From positions 1,888,001 to 1,952,000 of the forward strand of contig OY729428.2 in NCBI GenBank assembly GCA_963422375.2: a DNA stretch of 64,000 bases, given 5' to 3'. The translations under genes were made by a program, and so were the position numbers. The notes below the pieces were generated by a model that searched no databases, had not been told where the DNA came from, and saw nothing but the letters and a program-made list of their open reading frames with translations. This document shows, one piece after another, positions 43,428 to 50,995 of this stretch. This stretch comes from Bryobacterales bacterium. Lineage in GTDB: Bacteria; Acidobacteriota; Terriglobia; Bryobacterales; UBA6623. The first letter of the stretch is position 1. Every line of letters starts with the position of its first letter.

Positions 43428-45952
43428 TCACTGCGGGGCCCCGGCGATCTTGGCGAAGAAATCCGTCATCACTTCGTCCCGCAGTACGCGGGTCGCGACG
43501 CGCATCCTACGGCCGCGCTTGACCTCCTGCCAGGACAGGTCGTCGCCGAGGGCCGGGCTCGGCACGGTGATCGACTCGACCCAGCGCGGCTCGGCCAGCC
43601 AGGCAACTGCTGCCAGATCCCAGATCGCCAAGGTCCGCGACGGACGGTGCGGGGCGTGCTGCGCGGGGCTCCGCTCTTGGACCAGCTCGTACAGGTAGTC
43701 GCCCGCGGCCGAACTTCCGCTCAGTCGGCGCTCCAGCTCGTCCCGGCTCGCGCGCAGGTTCTCGGCCACTCCGGGAGCCGGTACTTGCATCAGACCGGCC
43801 CCTGAATCGAAAGGGAATTATATATCTGAGTGCCGACAACGCCATGGTCCGACTAGAACTGCTGTGAGCAGGGAGGTGGGTGTCGAGCTGGGGTCATTCG
43901 AGTGCGGCCGCGGCGGGCACAGAGGGGTGGGGTGTGGGATCGTATCTGAATCGAGCCTGCCAGCGGATTGGACGAGGAAGGGACTAGAGAGGCCGCCTCG
44001 CATGCGCCGGTTGCCCCGGTGGAACCCGGTTGGCGGTGGCAGGGCACGCCTTGCAAGCCGCTTGCAGGCCCTGCGAGGGCCGAAGACAGCGGATCCCCGG
44101 CGCTCGACGGCCTGCATGGACGGTCCGGACCGGACCGGGGTCGCGCCGGGGCATGCCGGATCCGGTGCGACCCTCGTACCGAGCGTGAAGCGCGCGCCCG
44201 CAGCGGGCTGCCGCGCTCGGCGCGGCGGGCGCCGCTCAGGCCGCGACCGCGGCCTGGCCGGTCAGCTGCCGGCAGGTCAGCGTCCGGCCGACCAAGCCCC
44301 GCGCCATGCGCCGCATCCGTTCCGCCGTCCCGCGAACTCCGTGAGGTAGCGGCCGAGATGACGGACGCTCATCCGGTGATAGGTGCCGTACAGGCCGCGC
44401 TTGAACAGGGACCCAAACGACTCGATGCCGTTCGTATGCGCCGCCCCGCGCACGTACTCGCCGCCGGAGTGCCTGACGGCTTCGTGCGCGAACTCCGCCA
44501 TGCCGGCGCAGGCCGCCGCCTCGTCGGAGCGGACCTGCGCCCCCGGCGCGACCCGGCCGCGCACGAAGCCCTGCAGGTCGCCCTCGGCGGTGCCCGGCAG
44601 CGGCCGCGCGGCCGCTGCGTTCGTGGCGCGGTCGCGCGCCCCCGCCACGGGCGTCTTGCCGACGGGCCCGCGCCCGGCGCGGGCCTTCTTCCTCTCGTGC
44701 TGGTTGCGTTCCTTGCCGCCGACGTAGGTCTCGTCCACCTCCACCGGGCCGGCGAACAGGCCCCGATCCCGCTCCCGGCACGCGCGGATGCGGTGCGCCA
44801 GGTGCCGGGCCGACTTCCGGCTGATGCCTAGGTCGCGGTGCAGCTTCATGCTCGAGACACCCTTGATGCCGGTAGTCAGCAGGAACAGGGCGACAGCCCG
44901 GGTGCGGTAGCCGAGCTTGGTGTCGGCCATCACGCTGCCGGTGCGCACCGAAAAGCGCCTGCCGCAGCCGCGGCAACGGTACGGCATCGAAGGGTGGGCC
45001 GCGTCGGACTGCACGCTGGAGCCGCGGCAGCGGGGGCACGCAGGACCGTCCGGCCAGCGCATGGATGCGAACCACTTTTCCGCGGATTCGTCATCGGGGA
45101 ACATGGCGATCACTTCGATCATTGTGATGCCTTTACGGAACCACTTTCCGGGACCTTGTTTCTTCATTTACGGTATCCCCTACTGGAACTATTCTACCAA
45201 GAAACACCACAGAATGTCAACGGAAATTCGGAAGAAATATGAAATCTTATTATGGCTTGATAATTTTGCCGACTTGATTCCCTCGGCACTCAGATATATA
45301 ATTCCCAATCGAAAAGCGCTCGGGTGGCGGCGAGGTCTTGGCGCAGGTTGAATTCCTCCGCCGACGCGAAGTGGTGCGGCGTGCCGCCGAGCCAGACGAC
45401 CGTGGTTCTGGATCCGACCTGCGGCTCCAATCGCAGCGCGGCGGCCACGTTCGTGGGCGCTCCGATCGCAACCAAGTAGTGAATCGCGGGCCCGCCGCCC
45501 ATGACGCGTTCGACGATGTGCTCCGCGGCTGGGCTGGCGACCGGCCTGCCTCCGACGCTCGTCCACGCCTTCGCTCCCTTGAAGACCGGGATCTCGCCTC
45601 CGATGCGCACGGCCTCGAGCACTGGTCCGATCTCGTCGTAGCTGCGCTCCATGCCGTCTCCCGGGTCGCGGACCCTTCGGTTCACGAAGGGCGCGGCGCA
45701 TGTCGCTTCGATCTGGATCGACTCTCTCGACAGGGCGGCGTACGCTAGGGCGAACTGGTCATCGAAGTCGTTCCCTGCGTCCGTGTCGATCAGAATGCGA
45801 GACTTTCCGACGGGCTGGGGTGCCGCGCTCCGTTGGCCGGACGCCGACCGGGCGGAAGCAGCGACGGAGCCGCCCAGCACCGCGAGGCCGCGGAGCGAGG
45901 AGAGCATCTGCCTCCTTGACGGGTGCCGGGGCCGCTCGGAGCGGGCGCGCAA
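43428..45952 (-). pseudogene. Nucleoside hydrolase family protein (Tat-like), interrupted by IS1595
   Basis: ILIDTDAGNDFDDQFAL, AIGAPTNVA, EFNL.QD..A...LFD joins SGAGL..IWDLAAVAWL in frame once the IS and one TSD copy are removed. Confidence 0.9.
43813..45306 (-). mobile_element. IS1595-family element (1494 bp), transposase 44277-45167 degenerate near its C-terminus
   Basis: Perfect 24-bp IRs. 8-bp TSD AATCGAAA at 43805-43812 and 45307-45314. Motifs RWPDGP.CPRC, GPVEVDETYVGG, HTNGIESF, YL.EFAGR. Confidence 0.95.
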
Positions 45953-47229: not shown

Positions 47230-48645
47230 ATGGAACCTGTGGAAGACGCTCAGCGCGCGGCGACGCTCCGCTCACTCCCGAGTGTCGAGGAAGTGCTGCG
47301 ATCAGCCGACGCGGCCAGCTGGATTGCGTTCCTGCCGCGCGAGCGCGTAACGGACTTGGTGCGCGCAACGCTTGCGGAGATCCGCGGTCAGGTCCTGGCC
47401 GGCGCCCCGACCCACGGCGAAGACCCGGCCGAGGAAGTGAAGCGGCGGGTCGGTCGCACTATCGACGGCCTGCTGCGCAGCACGCTGCGTCCGGCGATCA
47501 ATGCCTCGGGCGTGATCCTGCACACGAACCTAGGGCGGGCCCCGCTCAGCCGGGCGGCGATCGAAGCCATCGTCGAGACTTCCGGCTGCTACACCAATCT
47601 CGAGTACGACATCGCGCTGGGCCGTCGCGGACGGCGGGACGTCCATTGCGGCGAATTGCTTAGGAACCTGCTGGGGGCGCCCGCCATCGTCGTCAACAAC
47701 AACGCGGCCGCGGTCTTTCTCGTGCTGAGAGAGCTGGCCGCGGGCGGAGAGGTGATCGTGTCGCGCGGCGAGCTGATCGAGATCGGGGACGGGTTCCGCA
47801 TTCCCGAGATTCTCCAGGCGTCGGGAGCGGCCCTGCGCGAGGTGGGCACGACGAATCGCACCCGTCTAGACGACTACCGGCGCGCGATTGGCCCGGAGAC
47901 CAAGGCACTGATTCGGATTCATCCCAGCAATTTCCGGCAGGTGGGATTCACGGGTCGGCCATCGCTGAAAGAACTGGCCGGGCTGGCGCGTGCCGAATCG
48001 ATACCGCTGATCGAAGATCTCGGCAGCGGGTGCCTGGGCGGACTGGAAGGAACCGGCATGGAAGGGGAGCCGCGCGCGATCGACAGCTTGGGCCAGGGGG
48101 CCGACGTGGTGACGTTCTCGGGCGACAAGCTGCTCGGCGGTCCCCAAGCCGGCATCATCGCGGGCGAGGCAGAGACGGTGGAGCGGATCCGCCGCAATCC
48201 CCTGTTCCGCGCCCTGCGCGTGGACAAGCTCACCTTGGCGGCACTGGCGGCCACGCTCAGGAGCTTCGTGACGGGCCGGCCCGACGACGTGCCGGTGCTG
48301 CGGATGGCGCGCACGTCGGTCGAGGAACTCGCCAAGCGGGCACGGCGGTTCGTCCGGCGGCTCGAGATGCTCCACATGCCGCACGCCGAAGTGGTCCACG
48401 GCGAATCGCTGCTGGGTGGCGGCTCGACGCCGATGCAGACTCTGCCTGCGGCACTGGTGGCCGTCAGCGGTCCCCCCGGGCTTGCGGTTCGCAGGATCGA
48501 GGCGGCCCTGCGCGTGAGCGACCCTCCTGTGATCGCCCGGGTCGAGAGGGACCGTCTGCTGCTAGACTTGCGTACGGTGCGGGAGACCGAAGAGGACGAC
48601 CTCCTCGCAGCGGTCCTGCGGTCCACCGGCGCGACGGACGTCTAG
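47230..48645 (+). CDS. selA: L-seryl-tRNA(Sec) selenium transferase
   Basis: INASGVILHTNLGRA, NLEY, VNNNAAA, SRGELIEIG.GFRIP, EVGTTNRT, DLGSG, FSGDKLLGGPQAG, RALRVDK. Confidence 0.97.
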   Translation: MEPVEDAQRAATLRSLPSVEEVLRSADAASWIAFLPRERVTDLVRATLAEIRGQVLAGAPTHGEDPAEEVKRRVGRTIDGLLRSTLRPAINASGVILHTNLGRAPLSRAAIEAIVETSGCYTNLEYDIALGRRGRRDVHCGELLRNLLGAPAIVVNNNAAAVFLVLRELAAGGEVIVSRGELIEIGDGFRIPEILQASGAALREVGTTNRTRLDDYRRAIGPETKALIRIHPSNFRQVGFTGRPSLKELAGLARAESIPLIEDLGSGCLGGLEGTGMEGEPRAIDSLGQGADVVTFSGDKLLGGPQAGIIAGEAETVERIRRNPLFRALRVDKLTLAALAATLRSFVTGRPDDVPVLRMARTSVEELAKRARRFVRRLEMLHMPHAEVVHGESLLGGGSTPMQTLPAALVAVSGPPGLAVRRIEAALRVSDPPVIARVERDRLLLDLRTVRETEEDDLLAAVLRSTGATDV

Positions 48646-48649
48646 CGCG

Positions 48650-49057
48650 ATGAAGTTCAGCGTGTCGACGCGAGGATTCACCGACATCCTTGACATCACC
48701 GCGAAAGTCAAGGAACTGGCGGCTGGCTCCGGAGCGGGGGACGGCGTGGTCCACGTGTTCGTCGCAGGATCGACCGCGGCTCTCTCGACTATCGAGTTCG
48801 AACCGGGCGCGGTGCGTGACCTGAAGGAGGCGCTCGAACGCATCGCCCCGATGGACGCCGCGTACCACCACAACGAGGCGTGGCACGACGGCAACGGCTA
48901 CGCGCACTTGCGGGCGGCGCTGATGAAGCCGTCGCTGTCGGTGCCAATGGAAGGCGGCCGGCTCGTGCTCGGCACATGGCAGCAGCTCGTGCTGCTTGAC
49001 TTCGACAACCGTCCGCGTCGGCGGACAGTTCATGTCAGGGTGAGCGCGTGCGCCTGA
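48650..49057 (+). CDS. yjbQ: YjbQ / UPF0047 family protein
   Basis: DITAKV, GSTAA..TIE.E, NG.AHLRA, LGTWQ..L.DFD.RPR.R. Confidence 0.92.
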   Translation: MKFSVSTRGFTDILDITAKVKELAAGSGAGDGVVHVFVAGSTAALSTIEFEPGAVRDLKEALERIAPMDAAYHHNEAWHDGNGYAHLRAALMKPSLSVPMEGGRLVLGTWQQLVLLDFDNRPRRRTVHVRVSACA

Positions 49058-49133
49058 CGGGGCGTGCCCGCGCGTAGGCCCGCGCAGGCACTCGTCTGCA
49101 ACCATGTTGCATTTTGAGCTATACTCGATTCCT

Positions 49134-50453
49134 ATGCCTGGTCACCTCGCCGCCCCTGCGCCGGGGGCCCCCGCGCGGGATCGATCTCTCCGGTTGTCGG
49201 CATCGCGGACGGCGCGCCGCTGCTTGGCCTGCTGCGCGCTTGCCTTGGGGCTCTGCTCCGCGGCCGCGGCGCGTGCCTCTGAGGCCGTCACGTGGATCGA
49301 GTCCTACGACGAGGCGCTCGCGGAGGCCCGCCGGACGGGCAAGCCGATCTTCCTCGAATTCCGGTGCGCGCCCTGAAGGGCCGGGAGGGAATTCGACGCA
49401 CAGGTTGTGCTGACCGACGAAGACACCAAGCGGGGGCGCCTGCTGCGGCAGTACGTAACCGCGCGTATCACGCGGATGGACCGAATCAACATCGGGCTAT
49501 TCGACTTCGACCGGTACAACACGCTCTACTTTTTCGCGCTCAACGCGGACGAGCAGATTTACCTCCGATACGGAGGTCGGGACGAAAGGTCTGCCACGAC
49601 CTACCTGGACCTCGAGAGCCTAGAGCTTGCGCTCGAGAGGGGGCTCGATCTGCATCGTCGCTATCTCGTCGGCAAGCTGCCCCGGAAACCGGTGCCGCCA
49701 GCCCGGTACCCCCGCGAAATCCCAGCCCTGCACGAGCGCACGGTCCAGCGCGGCCGCTGCGTGGAATGCCACCTGATCGGCGATCTCGAGAACGTGCAAC
49801 GCGAGCGGGACGGAACGCTTGACAAGCTGACCCACCTATACCGCGCGCCGGAGATCAGGCGAATCGGCATTGAACTGGATATCCCGAAGGGCCTTCGCGT
49901 GGAGCAGGCCAGCGGCGGCGCAGCCGCCGCCGGAATGCGTCCGGGGGACGAGATTCGCGCCGTCAACGGAGTCGATGTCTGGACGTTCGGGGACCTGCAG
50001 TGGGAGCTCGGCAAACTGCCCCACACCGCGAAGGATCTCGGGATTGGCGTCCTGCGGGACGGAAGGCGCGAGCCGCTCCGAGTGGGCCTACAGCCATTCT
50101 GGTGGCTAACGGATCTGACGTACCGCAACCTCTCGGTGGATCCCCGCGTCTATTTCACTTCGTCCGCCTTGGACGAGCGGGAAAAGGTCGAGCTTGGCTT
50201 CGACCCCCGCGGATTTGCCAGTCGGGTAGTATCGATCGATCCGCTGGCCGAGCTCCTCGGCAGCCACCAGCTCCGGGAGGGTGACGTAATTTACGGTGTG
50301 GACGGCAAGTTCGTGGATGACGTCGCCGATACGGCCCACTTGTACATCAAGCTGCGCAAGCAGGCTGGATCCGAGGTAACTTTGCAGGTCCTGCGCGGGC
50401 GCCAGCGCATGGCACTTGCGCTCAAGACGGAGAGGATGAGTTTTCGGAAATGA
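49134..50453 (+). CDS. Putative exported selenoprotein: thioredoxin-like CxxU domain + CxxCH + PDZ-like domains (about 439 aa, Sec at 49374-49376)
   Basis: ORFs 49104-49376 and 49407-50453 are in the same frame, separated only by TGA in EFRCAP*. Trx_7-like W...YDEALAEAR..GKPIFL. CVECH at 49758-49772. AA.AG.RPGDEI.AVNG and L.EGD.I..VDG PDZ-like motifs. SECIS-like hairpin and adjacent selA. Confidence 0.85.
49393..49417 (+). promoter_or_regulatory. Candidate bacterial SECIS element
   Basis: TCG-AC-GCAC[AGGTT]GTGC-TGAC-CGA hairpin. Apical loop begins 26 nt after the TGA and resembles the E. coli fdhF GCAGGUCUGC apex. Confidence 0.7.
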
Positions 50454-50995
50454 ATGCGCTCTGCCGAGCCGTCGCTGCGCTGGCTGTCACGGCCAGCCTC
50501 TGGGCCGGCGACTGGTCCGAGCCAGTGGAGGCCACTGCCCGTGACGGCACGGCGCTCGTCACGTGTCGCGCGAGGGTCGCCGGAGAATTTCTCGTGGTTG
50601 AAGTCACCGCCGCCGCCGGCTGGCACGTCTACGCCATGGACAACGAGCAGAGGGCGAGGGAAGCGCTGGCCGGGAAGATGTCGCTGGGCGTCGAGCGGAA
50701 TACGGAGGTCTTGGTATCGGGCGGCTTGGAGCAGGTCGGCGTCTGGTACCAGAGCACTCCCGACGACCATTCGCAGCCCGAGTTGCGGTGGTACTCGTAC
50801 GGTTTCGAGGGGACGACCCTGCTGGCTAGCCGGGTCCGGCGCACGGGAGGCGAAATGGCGAGCGTCGAGGTCCGCGCCCAGGCGTGCGACAGCGCCAGCT
50901 GCGTTAGCGTCGAGGCCGAGCTGCGGGTGAAGGTGCCCGGCGGCGACGGCGCGGCCTTCGCCTTGGATGGCCTAGTCCCCGTGCGGGGTTCGTGA
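50450..50995 (+). CDS. Secreted DsbD N-terminal-domain-like protein
   Basis: ATGA overlap with the selenoprotein stop. Signal peptide, GWHVYA, and QACDSASC (Cx4C) near the C-terminus. Confidence 0.65.
   Translation: MNALCRAVAALAVTASLWAGDWSEPVEATARDGTALVTCRARVAGEFLVVEVTAAAGWHVYAMDNEQRAREALAGKMSLGVERNTEVLVSGGLEQVGVWYQSTPDDHSQPELRWYSYGFEGTTLLASRVRRTGGEMASVEVRAQACDSASCVSVEAELRVKVPGGDGAAFALDGLVPVRGS

Follow-up and report, generated by a model that had tools for sequence, protein, structure and literature searches.

In the window, the 64,000-nucleotide stretch of Bryobacterales DNA analysed here, a cluster of genes on the + strand begins with selA (47230..48645), encoding L-seryl-tRNA(Sec) selenium transferase (TIGR00474, 516.1 bits against a cut-off of 267.9; Pfam SelA, 417 bits). 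It is followed by a YjbQ/UPF0047 family gene (48650..49057; Pfam UPF0047, 115 bits; TIGR00149, 91.2 bits), by the Trx7/PDZ selenoprotein gene that concerns us here (49134..50453; 439 residues plus the stop codon), and by a gene for a secreted DsbD_N-like protein of 181 aa (50450..50995). All features described below are on this same + strand. The nearby selA gene to which a preliminary description of the locus had drawn attention is confirmed by these scores. Of 82 loci examined, 29 have selA ahead of the selenoprotein gene, all in the closest clade, and the YjbQ/UPF0047 gene that separates the two is present in 20 of 82, once as just a short fragment. A simple scan for promoters and terminators between 46800 and 51200 found nothing.

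Translation of 49134-50453 with TGA read as U gives one open frame, in which the TGA at 49374-49376 is the sole internal stop. The two ORFs called there, 49104..49376 (90 aa) and 49407..50453 (348 aa), do have a common frame with this single interruption, as had been noticed at the outset, and joining them across the TGA yields the 439-residue product. The start codon of the gene is uncertain, ATG 49104 being the alternative. The Sec codon is residue 81, in the context F-R-C-A-P-U, and it closes the redox motif C-A-P-U (49365..49376). The readthrough product matches the NCBIfam model NF041199, 'Trx7/PDZ domain-containing (seleno)protein', over residues 53-431 with 395.5 bits (cut-off 300), and a six-frame search of the genome with the same model gave 387.5 bits at this gene, with '1 TGA' inside. 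Gene calling with translation table 11 divides 49134-50453 into two ORFs, the protein database entry for the gene is the 348-aa fragment only, and among the 150 best cluster representatives 93 begin right after the Sec column, so the splitting by standard gene callers that had been foreseen has indeed occurred. Judged from its sequence, 49134-50453 is a genuine selenoprotein gene of an exported redox protein, cut in two by gene callers. As a gene call this is of little consequence, and the curated NCBIfam model could let pipelines that use it recognise the gene; the case usefully recalls that the Trx7/PDZ selenoprotein is cut short by generic gene callers.

TGA stands at the Sec column in 152 of 158 related loci (78 of the 80 from genomes and 74 of the 78 from metagenomes, the window having it as well), and the protein sequence is conserved on both sides of the column. 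Because the same column holds TGA in nearly all loci of both kinds, between conserved flanks, its presence is not a matter of chance. In the six exceptional loci the N-terminal region is absent altogether. Two related loci (L092 and L124) are truncated copies, in L019 the motif was not matched by the pattern search, and in G110 '1 TGA' was flagged within the gene by a six-frame profile search. The homolog P0109 reads C-A-P-C, with Cys at the Sec column. Among 30 divergent full-length members, compared at 23-51% identity, Cys occupies this column in 23, the first Cys is present in all 30, and the second redox residue is missing in 7. The outcome of this comparison, which the preliminary description had proposed as a check, agrees with its placing of the TGA at the second redox position of a thioredoxin-type CxxC site. 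The Bryobacterales-labelled lineage has a strong preference for Sec over Cys. Positions 49374-49376 are also covered by contigs of runs from three studies; no letter differs, and all reproduce the TGA.

A bSECIS-type hairpin (49394..49415) lies downstream of the TGA. Its upper stem GCAC/GUGC (49398-49401/49407-49410) carries the apical loop AGGUU (49402-49406), which begins 25 nt past the UGA; the loop is reduced to GGU if A and U pair to close it, and the upper stem accordingly has 4-5 bp. The lower stem GAC/GAC has an A.A mismatch after a bulged U. According to the criteria printed in PMC13188914, a bSECIS element has an apical loop of 3-9 nt with G in the first two loop positions and an upper stem of at least 4 bp, at 16-37 nt from the UGA, and the hairpin satisfies these published limits on loop, stem, G position and spacing. 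The minimum free energy of 49390-49423 is -7.4 kcal/mol, beside a bSECIS criterion of -7.5 kcal/mol or lower, with a z of -0.7 versus shuffled sequences. The hairpins of relatives gave -8.9 (L079), -10.6 (L123) and -8.1 kcal/mol (L199), the last with a different stem sequence in the same hairpin architecture. For the 86 nt after the Cys codon the folding energy was no better than that of shuffles (z +0.87). Single-sequence energy is uninformative here, and we therefore relied on comparative analysis.

In that analysis all 76 distinct rows preserved the upper stem, showing one double compensatory and two wobble changes; the lower stem was mismatched in 32 of the 76 and has partial support only. 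RNAalifold returned the 4-bp upper stem only, with a covariation term near nil, since a stem that hardly varies leaves little covariation to be seen. The third-base entropy of codons 89, 91, 92 and 93 is 0.00-0.66 bits, compared with 1.08-1.91 bits for the other 44 conserved four-fold codons, and these four lowest synonymous-site entropies among 48 conserved codons coincide exactly with the hairpin. A search of the window with Rfam at gathering thresholds found nothing but two tRNAs. At the protein level, the Cys form P0109 reads FDARV where the window protein reads FDAQV, and a metagenome scan seeded with P0109 returned neither Cys-form DNA nor the contig of P0109 itself. The downstream SECIS hairpin that had been named as a hallmark is thus upheld by the conserved upper stem and by the synonymous-site constraint, and the comparison supplies a well-defined SECIS consensus for the Trx7/PDZ family.

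The remaining genes for Sec decoding were looked for elsewhere in the genome, as had been suggested, and selB (345.6 bits), selD (299.7 bits) and tRNA-Sec, the selC product (73.9 bits, anticodon tca, tRNA-Sec(UCA)), were all found. The preliminary description had named four observations that would speak against a selenoprotein, namely homologs without Cys or Sec at this position, the two halves as separate genes elsewhere, TGC or TGT in the reads, and a genome without selB or selC; none of these was what we found.

The N-terminal region (residues 1-48, 49134..49277) is signal-peptide-like, with a basic stretch and then the hydrophobic CLACCALALGLCSAAAARA. Here and in all homologs printed, a hydrophobic N-terminal segment is found ahead of the conserved mature domain, in agreement with the probable signal peptide of the original claim. 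Mature residues 1-133 (49278..49676) form a Thioredoxin_7, cDsbD-like fold (Pfam Thioredoxin_7, 32.3 bits, residues 53-113 of the precursor), and tandem PDZ domains follow at about residues 245-320 and 338-431 (49866..50426), with Pfam matches of PDZ and PDZ_6 at about 260-289 and of PDZ_2 at 378-431. With a CVECH motif at residues 209-213, this is the order of Trx-like domain, CVECH and two PDZ-like segments initially read from the translation. A structure model of the protein was obtained with a pLDDT of 94.3 and a pTM of 0.90. Its Trx domain matched 3f9u_B (Z 12.8) and the cDsbD structure 1vrs_D (Z 9.0), and hhalign aligned this domain with the cDsbD of the same genome (E 2.9e-5), CxxU falling on CSNC. 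The N-terminal profile gave marginal matches to PDB sequences (E 0.0086-0.93). The best Foldseek matches of the PDZ half were the PDZ1-PDZ2 tandems of DegP/DegQ (3otp_D, E 1.5e-10) and RseP.

The gene that follows encodes a protein with a conserved Q144-x-C146-x4-C151 motif, and its ATG overlaps the TGA stop of the selenoprotein gene (ATGA). Of the 127 assessable loci, 124 carry this gene downstream of the one for the selenoprotein (80 of 82 from genomes and 44 of 45 from metagenomes); in L123 and L199 there is room downstream and the partner is absent. In P0122 and P0123 the partner is fused to the Trx7/PDZ protein, in the order Trx-PDZ-PDZ-nDsbD. Of 79 partner sequences, 77 have both C146 and C151. 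Pfam DsbD_N matches 34 of 39 partner homologs, the copy in the window scoring 21.7 bits, under the cut-off of 25. An hhalign comparison with the nDsbD of the same genome aligned the Cys pairs (E 4.3e-4, probability 34%), and the partner alignment profile found nothing among PDB sequences at E up to 1. There is no membrane DsbD or CcdA gene within the cluster; the only DsbD_TM match of the genome is a canonical DsbD of 646 aa, which the same contig carries at a distance of about 357 kb.

Perhaps the Trx7/PDZ selenoprotein is a periplasmic selenol/thiol oxidoreductase that relays with the nDsbD-like partner, the PDZ domains holding its substrates, a function for which we consider the chances about evenly balanced. 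The UGA at 49374-49376 is very probably decoded as Sec by SelB and tRNA-Sec, directed by the GCAC-AGGUU-GUGC hairpin, and the mature protein consists of a cDsbD-like Trx fold with C-x-x-U, a helical linker with C-x-x-C-H and a DegP-like PDZ1-PDZ2 pair. The Trx domain would exchange electrons with the co-translated, secreted partner through its C-x4-C, in the manner of the DsbD gamma and alpha domains, with polypeptide substrates held by the PDZ domains, and the membrane source of electrons would be the single canonical DsbD of the genome, encoded elsewhere. A coupling of the two proteins is suggested by their adjacency in genomes (80/82) and metagenomes (44/45), the ATGA overlap, the two fusions and the alignment of both active sites with DsbD of the same genome, in its gamma and its alpha domain respectively. 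Counting against the relay are the weak similarity of the partner to nDsbD, with a Pfam score below cut-off, an hhalign probability of 34% and no PDB sequence match, the missing partner in L123 and L199, and a cluster in which no membrane DsbD or CcdA gene was found. Since the second redox residue is missing from 7 of the 30 divergent proteins, dithiol or selenol-thiol exchange cannot be the whole story for the family.

The C-V-E-C-H motif (residues 209-213, 49758..49772) opens a helix in the linker that joins the Trx domain to the PDZ domains. CxxCH including its His is found in 63 of 63 close members and in each of the 30 divergent full-length ones, a stricter conservation than that of the Sec/Cys position; the residues invariant in the 30 divergent proteins are Cys78 (mature C30), C209, C212 and H213. 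Another His, at mature position 126, occurs in 24 of these 30 proteins, and there is no other invariant His or Met. No cytochrome c or magnetochrome domain model matched the CVECH segment significantly, the sole family match being that of the Pfam magnetochrome model MCR (PF18509; 13.5 bits against a cut-off of 30.4, E 0.055). In fold searches of the N-terminal model only residues 1-133 were matched, and the segment 134-196 was without match. In the structure model the motif is at the N-terminus of helix 164-178. The CVECH segment has a pLDDT of about 79 when the N-terminal half is modelled in isolation and of about 91 in the full model, an increase suggesting that it packs against other domains.

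Two readings of this motif were considered. In one, which we hold to be possible though somewhat doubtful, CxxCH acts without heme, together with the first Trx Cys, either as another redox-active disulfide or as a site for a metal (Zn, Fe or Cu), and Sec/Cys81 is an accessory resolving residue, dispensable in some lineages. The invariance of Cys78, C209, C212 and H213 in 30 of 30, beside the loss of position 81 in 7 of 30, fits such a site, as do the position of the motif at the N-terminus of its helix and the interdomain packing suggested by the pLDDT values; however, a simple disulfide relay needs no invariant His after CxxC, and no metal-site family was matched. The other reading, that CxxCH attaches heme c covalently and makes this a heme-containing selenoprotein, seems to us rather unlikely; it concerns function and is compatible with Sec decoding. 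It would put a one-electron heme centre beside the two-electron selenol/thiol centre and the PDZ domains, loosely as in MamP/MamE. The motif with its His is invariant in close and divergent members (63/63 and 30/30), the protein is exported judging from its signal-peptide-like N-terminus, the genome has three Cytochrom_C_asm matches above cut-off, magnetochrome is the sole family model touching the segment, and the His at mature position 126 (24/30) could be the distal ligand. Nevertheless, the magnetochrome match is far below its cut-off and covers the motif alone, no cytochrome fold was matched in the fold searches of the N-terminal model, a second invariant His or Met is missing, and redox or metal sites just as typically have a CxxC where a helix begins.

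If covalent heme c on CxxCH were combined with a 'split DsbD' relay of two soluble proteins, Sec taking the place of the resolving Cys of the gamma-like domain, the result would be a selenium-plus-heme periplasmic enzyme coupling one- and two-electron chemistry on PDZ-held protein substrates. We know of no described selenoprotein of this selenium-plus-heme 'split DsbD' kind, and regard the combination as unlikely. Far less probable still, to the point of being dismissed, is that no selenoprotein is made at all, the TGA being a true stop that separates two genes, a lesion in a pseudogene or an error of sequencing: the two ORFs from table-11 gene calling, a hairpin that is weak by energy alone and the truncated L092 and L124 speak for it, but it is contradicted by the recurrence of TGA at a single column, between conserved flanks, in 152 of the 158 loci, which come from many assemblies, by the Cys homologs, by synonymous-site constraint coinciding with the hairpin, by the full Sec machinery of the genome, by the TGA seen in contigs of three studies, and by the fact that the 90-aa ORF would stop within the Trx active site.

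A single gene for an exported selenoprotein of the NF041199 family, its UGA read as Sec, is very probably the right explanation of the locus as a whole, the periplasmic relay being the evenly balanced part of it. A near-obligatory DsbD_N-like partner with fusions, the conservation of CxxCH, the preference for Sec and the SECIS consensus give more to work with for this family. The family thereby becomes open to direct bench tests of heme or metal content, partner trapping and dependence on DsbD.

The Trx7/PDZ selenoprotein family is already known and has been catalogued since 2008, as NF041199 is listed in two selenoproteome reviews (PMC13188914 and PMC9312934, the latter giving it as 'PDZ domain-containing protein, pfam13899, CxxU') and traces to the 2008 GOS survey (PMC2398784), where its selenoprotein status was predicted. 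By our reading of the table order in that survey, it is the selenoprotein listed there as 'putative secreted serine protease MucD'. The preliminary description was right that Trx/PDZ (seleno)protein families had been catalogued. The window protein shares with NF041199 the CxxU motif, the single Sec, Thioredoxin_7 and PDZ, with no difference in the protein itself. The accessible portions of these three papers assign the family no function, name no partner gene, give no SECIS consensus and make no mention of CxxCH, and the partner gene linkage and CxxCH invariance were likewise not encountered in the accessible parts of the literature searched.

Other known systems resemble parts of this protein. 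TsoB, a rhodanese/DsbD fusion-like selenoprotein (NF045694), also has DsbD-related parts and matches residues 31-91 weakly, with 17.9 bits against a cut-off of 805; unlike the window protein it has a UxxxxU motif and another architecture. MamP and MamE are magnetochrome-PDZ proteins with paired CxxCH motifs. The likeness here lies in an exported protein that has a CxxCH beside PDZ domains and gives weak NCBIfam matches in its PDZ parts and a weak MCR match on the motif, but the scores are far below cut-offs (MamP 28 against 300; MCR 13.5 against 30.4), and the single motif here is not paired and is placed before the PDZ domains. The similarity to DegP/DegQ (HtrA) is confined to the C-terminal half, which superposes on PDZ1-PDZ2 (3otp_D) and is matched by TIGR02037 at residues 260-428. 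The trypsin-like domain is absent (TIGR02037, 40 bits against a cut-off of 416; no Pfam Trypsin match), and a Trx domain and helical linker stand in place of the protease domain. In comparison with E. coli DsbD (complex 1VRS), the gamma-type Trx fold is shared, with CxxU falling on the CxxC of the cDsbD of the same genome, and the partner weakly resembles the Ig-like alpha domain, its C-x4-C being aligned on the nDsbD Cys pair. There is no DsbD_TM domain in the window protein or in the cluster, and where DsbD has the order alpha-TM-gamma, the corresponding parts here are separate secreted proteins or are fused as Trx-PDZ-PDZ-nDsbD. Finally, where DsbD has its second Cys this protein has Sec, and it possesses the PDZ tandem and CxxCH in addition.

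The preliminary description had proposed that an exported selenoprotein is hidden in two open reading frames of the forward strand, one of 90 aa (49104..49376) and one of 348 aa (49407..50453). Translation of the window agrees with this: both lie in the same frame, and TGA 49374-49376, at the CxxC site, is the sole internal stop in 49134-50453. When translated as Sec it becomes residue 81, in the motif F-R-C-A-P-U. In the readthrough protein, Pfam assigns residues 53-113 to Thioredoxin_7 and the stretches from about 260-289 and 378-431 to PDZ domains, and CVECH occupies residues 209-213, so the domain arrangement described earlier stands. The NCBIfam model NF041199, an equivalog named "Trx7/PDZ domain-containing (seleno)protein", matches residues 53-431 with 395.5 bits against a cut-off of 300, and the earlier remark that such families had been catalogued was accurate. 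The name NF041199 appears in a single paper of the literature that could be searched. Zhang and Gladyshev 2008 (PMC2398784, Table 4) reported "putative secreted serine protease MucD" as a new selenoprotein family with a CxxU motif, counting 2 members with Sec and 12 with Cys, and from the order of the tables we infer that this is the family later named Trx7/PDZ. The words PDZ, DsbD and heme are absent from the 2008 text, and the passages of papers listing the family, which include PMC13188914 and PMC9312934, give no function for it. The window protein is a real selenoprotein, correctly read earlier, but one whose family was already catalogued; the leads worth following are a partner gene, its fusions and an invariant CxxCH.

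When 1.84 billion cluster representatives were searched with a profile, 199 proteins matched at E <= 1e-30. Among the best 150 of these, the active site was covered in 29, another 28 were other fragments, and 93 began at profile positions 34-70 within their own first 15 residues, so that their called starts lie just past the UGA. The database entry for the window's gene is a 348-aa fragment (P0002). Standard gene callers do split the gene, as had been anticipated.

Eighty genome loci were fetched, mostly with Bryobacterales, Terriglobia or Acidobacteria labels (two Pirellulaceae, one Hydrogenedentota), and 78 of these, like the window, have TGA at the aligned codon. The other two, L092 and L124, are truncated at the 5' end and preceded by unrelated sequence; they are pseudogenes or else errors of long-read assembly. 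The Trx active site is absent from both (L092:3989-4861 starts at residue ~149, L124:4001-5006 at ~104), and there are frameshifts in the selenoprotein gene of L124 and in the partner gene of L092. Metagenome loci (n=78) had TGA in 74, the N-terminus being missing in the other 4. The flanks of the TGA are conserved in protein sequence (…PIFLEFRC-x-x-*-x-x-GR-x-FDAQVV…). Among 401 genomes sampled from the phylum, including three unpublished ones (G024, G152 and G049) that have no match above cut-off and enter no other result, the only other genome exceeding it was G110, with one TGA inside the match. The homolog P0109 carries C-A-P-C at the Sec site. Of 30 divergent full-length cluster representatives (23-51% identical), 23 have Cys at the Sec column and 7 have a gap or a different residue; 9 of the 30 were scored against NF041199, and all 9 exceeded its cut-off. 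Homologs with Cys or TGA at this column, which the preliminary description had said to look for, are present. The second Trx redox residue is lost, and the first Cys and CxxCH kept, in P0160, P0162, P0197, P0202, P0208, P0235 and P0246, of which the two tested (P0197 and P0202) still exceed the cut-off. A TGC or TGT codon in place of TGA, named earlier as an outcome against Sec, was not found: four runs from three studies, some of which may be the assembly's own source, yielded contigs that span 49374-49376 with zero differing letters.

Following the UGA, 79 aligned sequences (76 distinct) share the near-invariant element GAC-GCAC-AGGUN-GUGC-U-G(U/A)C. The bSECIS criteria in passages of PMC13188914 are a loop of 3-9 nt, an upper stem of 4-16 bp, a G in the first two loop positions, a spacing of 16-37 nt and an MFE <= -7.5 kcal/mol. 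The hairpin falls within the four geometric ranges (loop A-GGU-U, upper stem 4-5 bp, spacing 25 nt), and its MFE is borderline in the source genome at -7.4 kcal/mol, with -8.9, -10.6 and -8.1 in relatives. As the stem is nearly invariant, it offers little covariation: the four upper pairs present one double compensatory change (L123, GCGC/GCGC) and two wobble changes, and the outer pair 30-51 is UA in 25, CG in 10, UG in 2 and unpaired in 39. Synonymous-site conservation is the stronger test. Over 48 conserved four-fold-degenerate codon columns of the gene, the four lowest third-base entropies (0.10, 0.66, 0.00 and 0.18 bits) belong to residues 89, 91, 92 and 93 and coincide exactly with the hairpin, the remaining 44 ranging from 1.08 to 1.91 bits. 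The divergent homolog L199 differs in the sequence of its upper stem (GACC/GGUC) and loop (AGUU) but keeps the layout: 3 bp, a bulge of 1 nt, 4 bp and a loop whose second position is G (MFE -8.1). The conserved element and the synonymous constraint together support the SECIS hairpin of the preliminary description. On the metagenome contig of L199 (L199:2585-2640) the redox motif is R-U-V-P-U, both of its redox positions being encoded by TGA, and CVHCH is kept.

The remaining Sec machinery looked for is all encoded in the genome: selB (345.6 bits), selC as a tRNA-Sec with anticodon tca (73.9 bits) and selD (299.7 bits), in addition to selA (516 bits) two genes upstream of the selenoprotein gene. 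This selA linkage is found in 29 of 82 loci, in the closest clade only. From the conserved UGA, the Cys homologs, the hairpin, these genes and the agreement of the contigs, UGA 49374-49376 very probably encodes Sec. A YjbQ/UPF0047 gene (48650-49057) separates selA from the selenoprotein gene, starting 5 nt past the selA stop, and holds that position in 20/82 loci; we know of no link between YjbQ/UPF0047 and selenium metabolism. The selD match is part of a 759-aa ORF (L016:241-2520; G000 contig C1, around 1374433-1375347) with an N-terminal extension of ~400 aa that begins with a GGGHSH dinucleotide-binding-like motif, and is therefore probably a fused oxidoreductase-SelD; its active-site region has Cys, not Sec, and zero stops inside the match. 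An IS1595-family transposase (DDE_Tnp_IS1595 and zinc ribbon; 44277-45164, minus strand) lies ~2 kb upstream of the selA cluster.

The partner gene (50450-50995) starts within the selenoprotein stop codon (ATGA) and encodes 181 aa with a signal-peptide-like N-terminus. Of 39 partner homologs, 34 match Pfam DsbD_N with E no higher than 0.01; the copy in the window scores 21.7 bits, under the cut-off of 25. Invariant in the 39-row alignment are W22, W58, H59, D64, R68, G75, T85, W99, S108, Q144, C146 and C151, and the Cys pair is present in 77/79 sequences. The genome's canonical DsbD has 646 aa and three domains and is its sole DsbD_TM match; the partner's GWH and A-C-x4-C align with SWH and A-C-D-P-R-Q-C of its N-terminal Ig-like domain, nDsbD (hhalign, E 4.3e-4, probability 34%). 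The partner lies downstream of the selenoprotein gene in 80/82 loci (exceptions L110, at a contig edge, and L123). Of 45 metagenome loci whose 3' end is complete and followed by at least 600 nt, 44 also have it; L199 lacks it within 2488 nt. In the cluster representatives P0122 (a Cys form of 606 aa) and P0123 (518 aa, its called start lying just past the Sec column) it is fused to the Trx7/PDZ C-terminus, with partner profile scores of 145 and 163 bits. Fragment P0155 also contains both parts. Adjacency, translational overlap and fusion in combination make a functional link likely. The searchable literature, whose coverage is incomplete, yielded no mention of this partner.

CxxCH is invariant in 63/63 close and 30/30 divergent members. 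The residues invariant in all 30 divergent members (mature numbering) are W6, P23, C30, D78, R97, C161, C164, H165, P191 and G197; the Sec/Cys position is outside this set, and the first Trx Cys and C-x-x-C-H are therefore the family core. The motif reads C-x-H-C-H rather than C-V-E-C-H in 25/30. Heme binding is a tentative possibility for this putative site: c-type cytochrome maturation is encoded in the genome and a candidate distal His (mature position 126) occurs in 24/30 divergent members, while a permissive Pfam scan gave only a magnetochrome domain (13.5 bits versus a cut-off of 30.4), a match that amounts to the CxxCH motif itself. A putative metal site is less probable, a putative second redox disulfide is the most doubtful of the three, and a substantial share of the probability is assigned to none of them.

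The mature protein (391 aa) was modelled with AlphaFold2 from a 63-row alignment, with a mean pLDDT of 94.3 and a pTM of 0.90. The hydrophobic N-terminal segment, found in all homologs, is consistent with export of this predicted secreted protein. In fold searches the C-terminal half of the model resembles the PDZ1-PDZ2 tandems of DegP/DegQ (3otp_D, E 1.5e-10) and RseP. Mature residues ~134-196 form a helical linker between the Trx and PDZ parts, with CVECH beginning helix 164-178, and had zero matches in fold searches of the N-terminal model. The C-terminal tail R-M-S-F-R-K (50436-50450) has R390 and K391 invariant and F389 in at least 90% of 63 sequences; in this two-PDZ protein it could be a putative self- or partner-binding tail. 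Divergent Cys forms are without it.

Residues 1-133 of the mature protein form a Thioredoxin_7 fold, best matched by 3f9u_B (Z 12.8, rmsd 2.5 Å, 118 residues aligned), the C-terminal domain of a DsbD-like "cytochrome c biogenesis-related" protein; E. coli cDsbD (1vrs_D) gives Z 9.0, and C-x-x-U aligns onto C-S-N-C of the genome's own cDsbD (hhalign, E 2.9e-5, probability 74%). The gene product is a predicted exported protein with a Sec-containing cDsbD-like Trx domain and a DegP-like PDZ tandem, genetically coupled to a predicted secreted nDsbD-like protein. The PDZ domains might draw in envelope proteins by their unfolded or C-terminal peptide segments. In DsbD, electrons pass from the gamma Trx domain to the alpha domain, which then reduces Trx-fold clients; by analogy, the selenoprotein and its partner would swap reducing equivalents via C78/U81 and C146/C151, and canonical DsbD would supply the pair.
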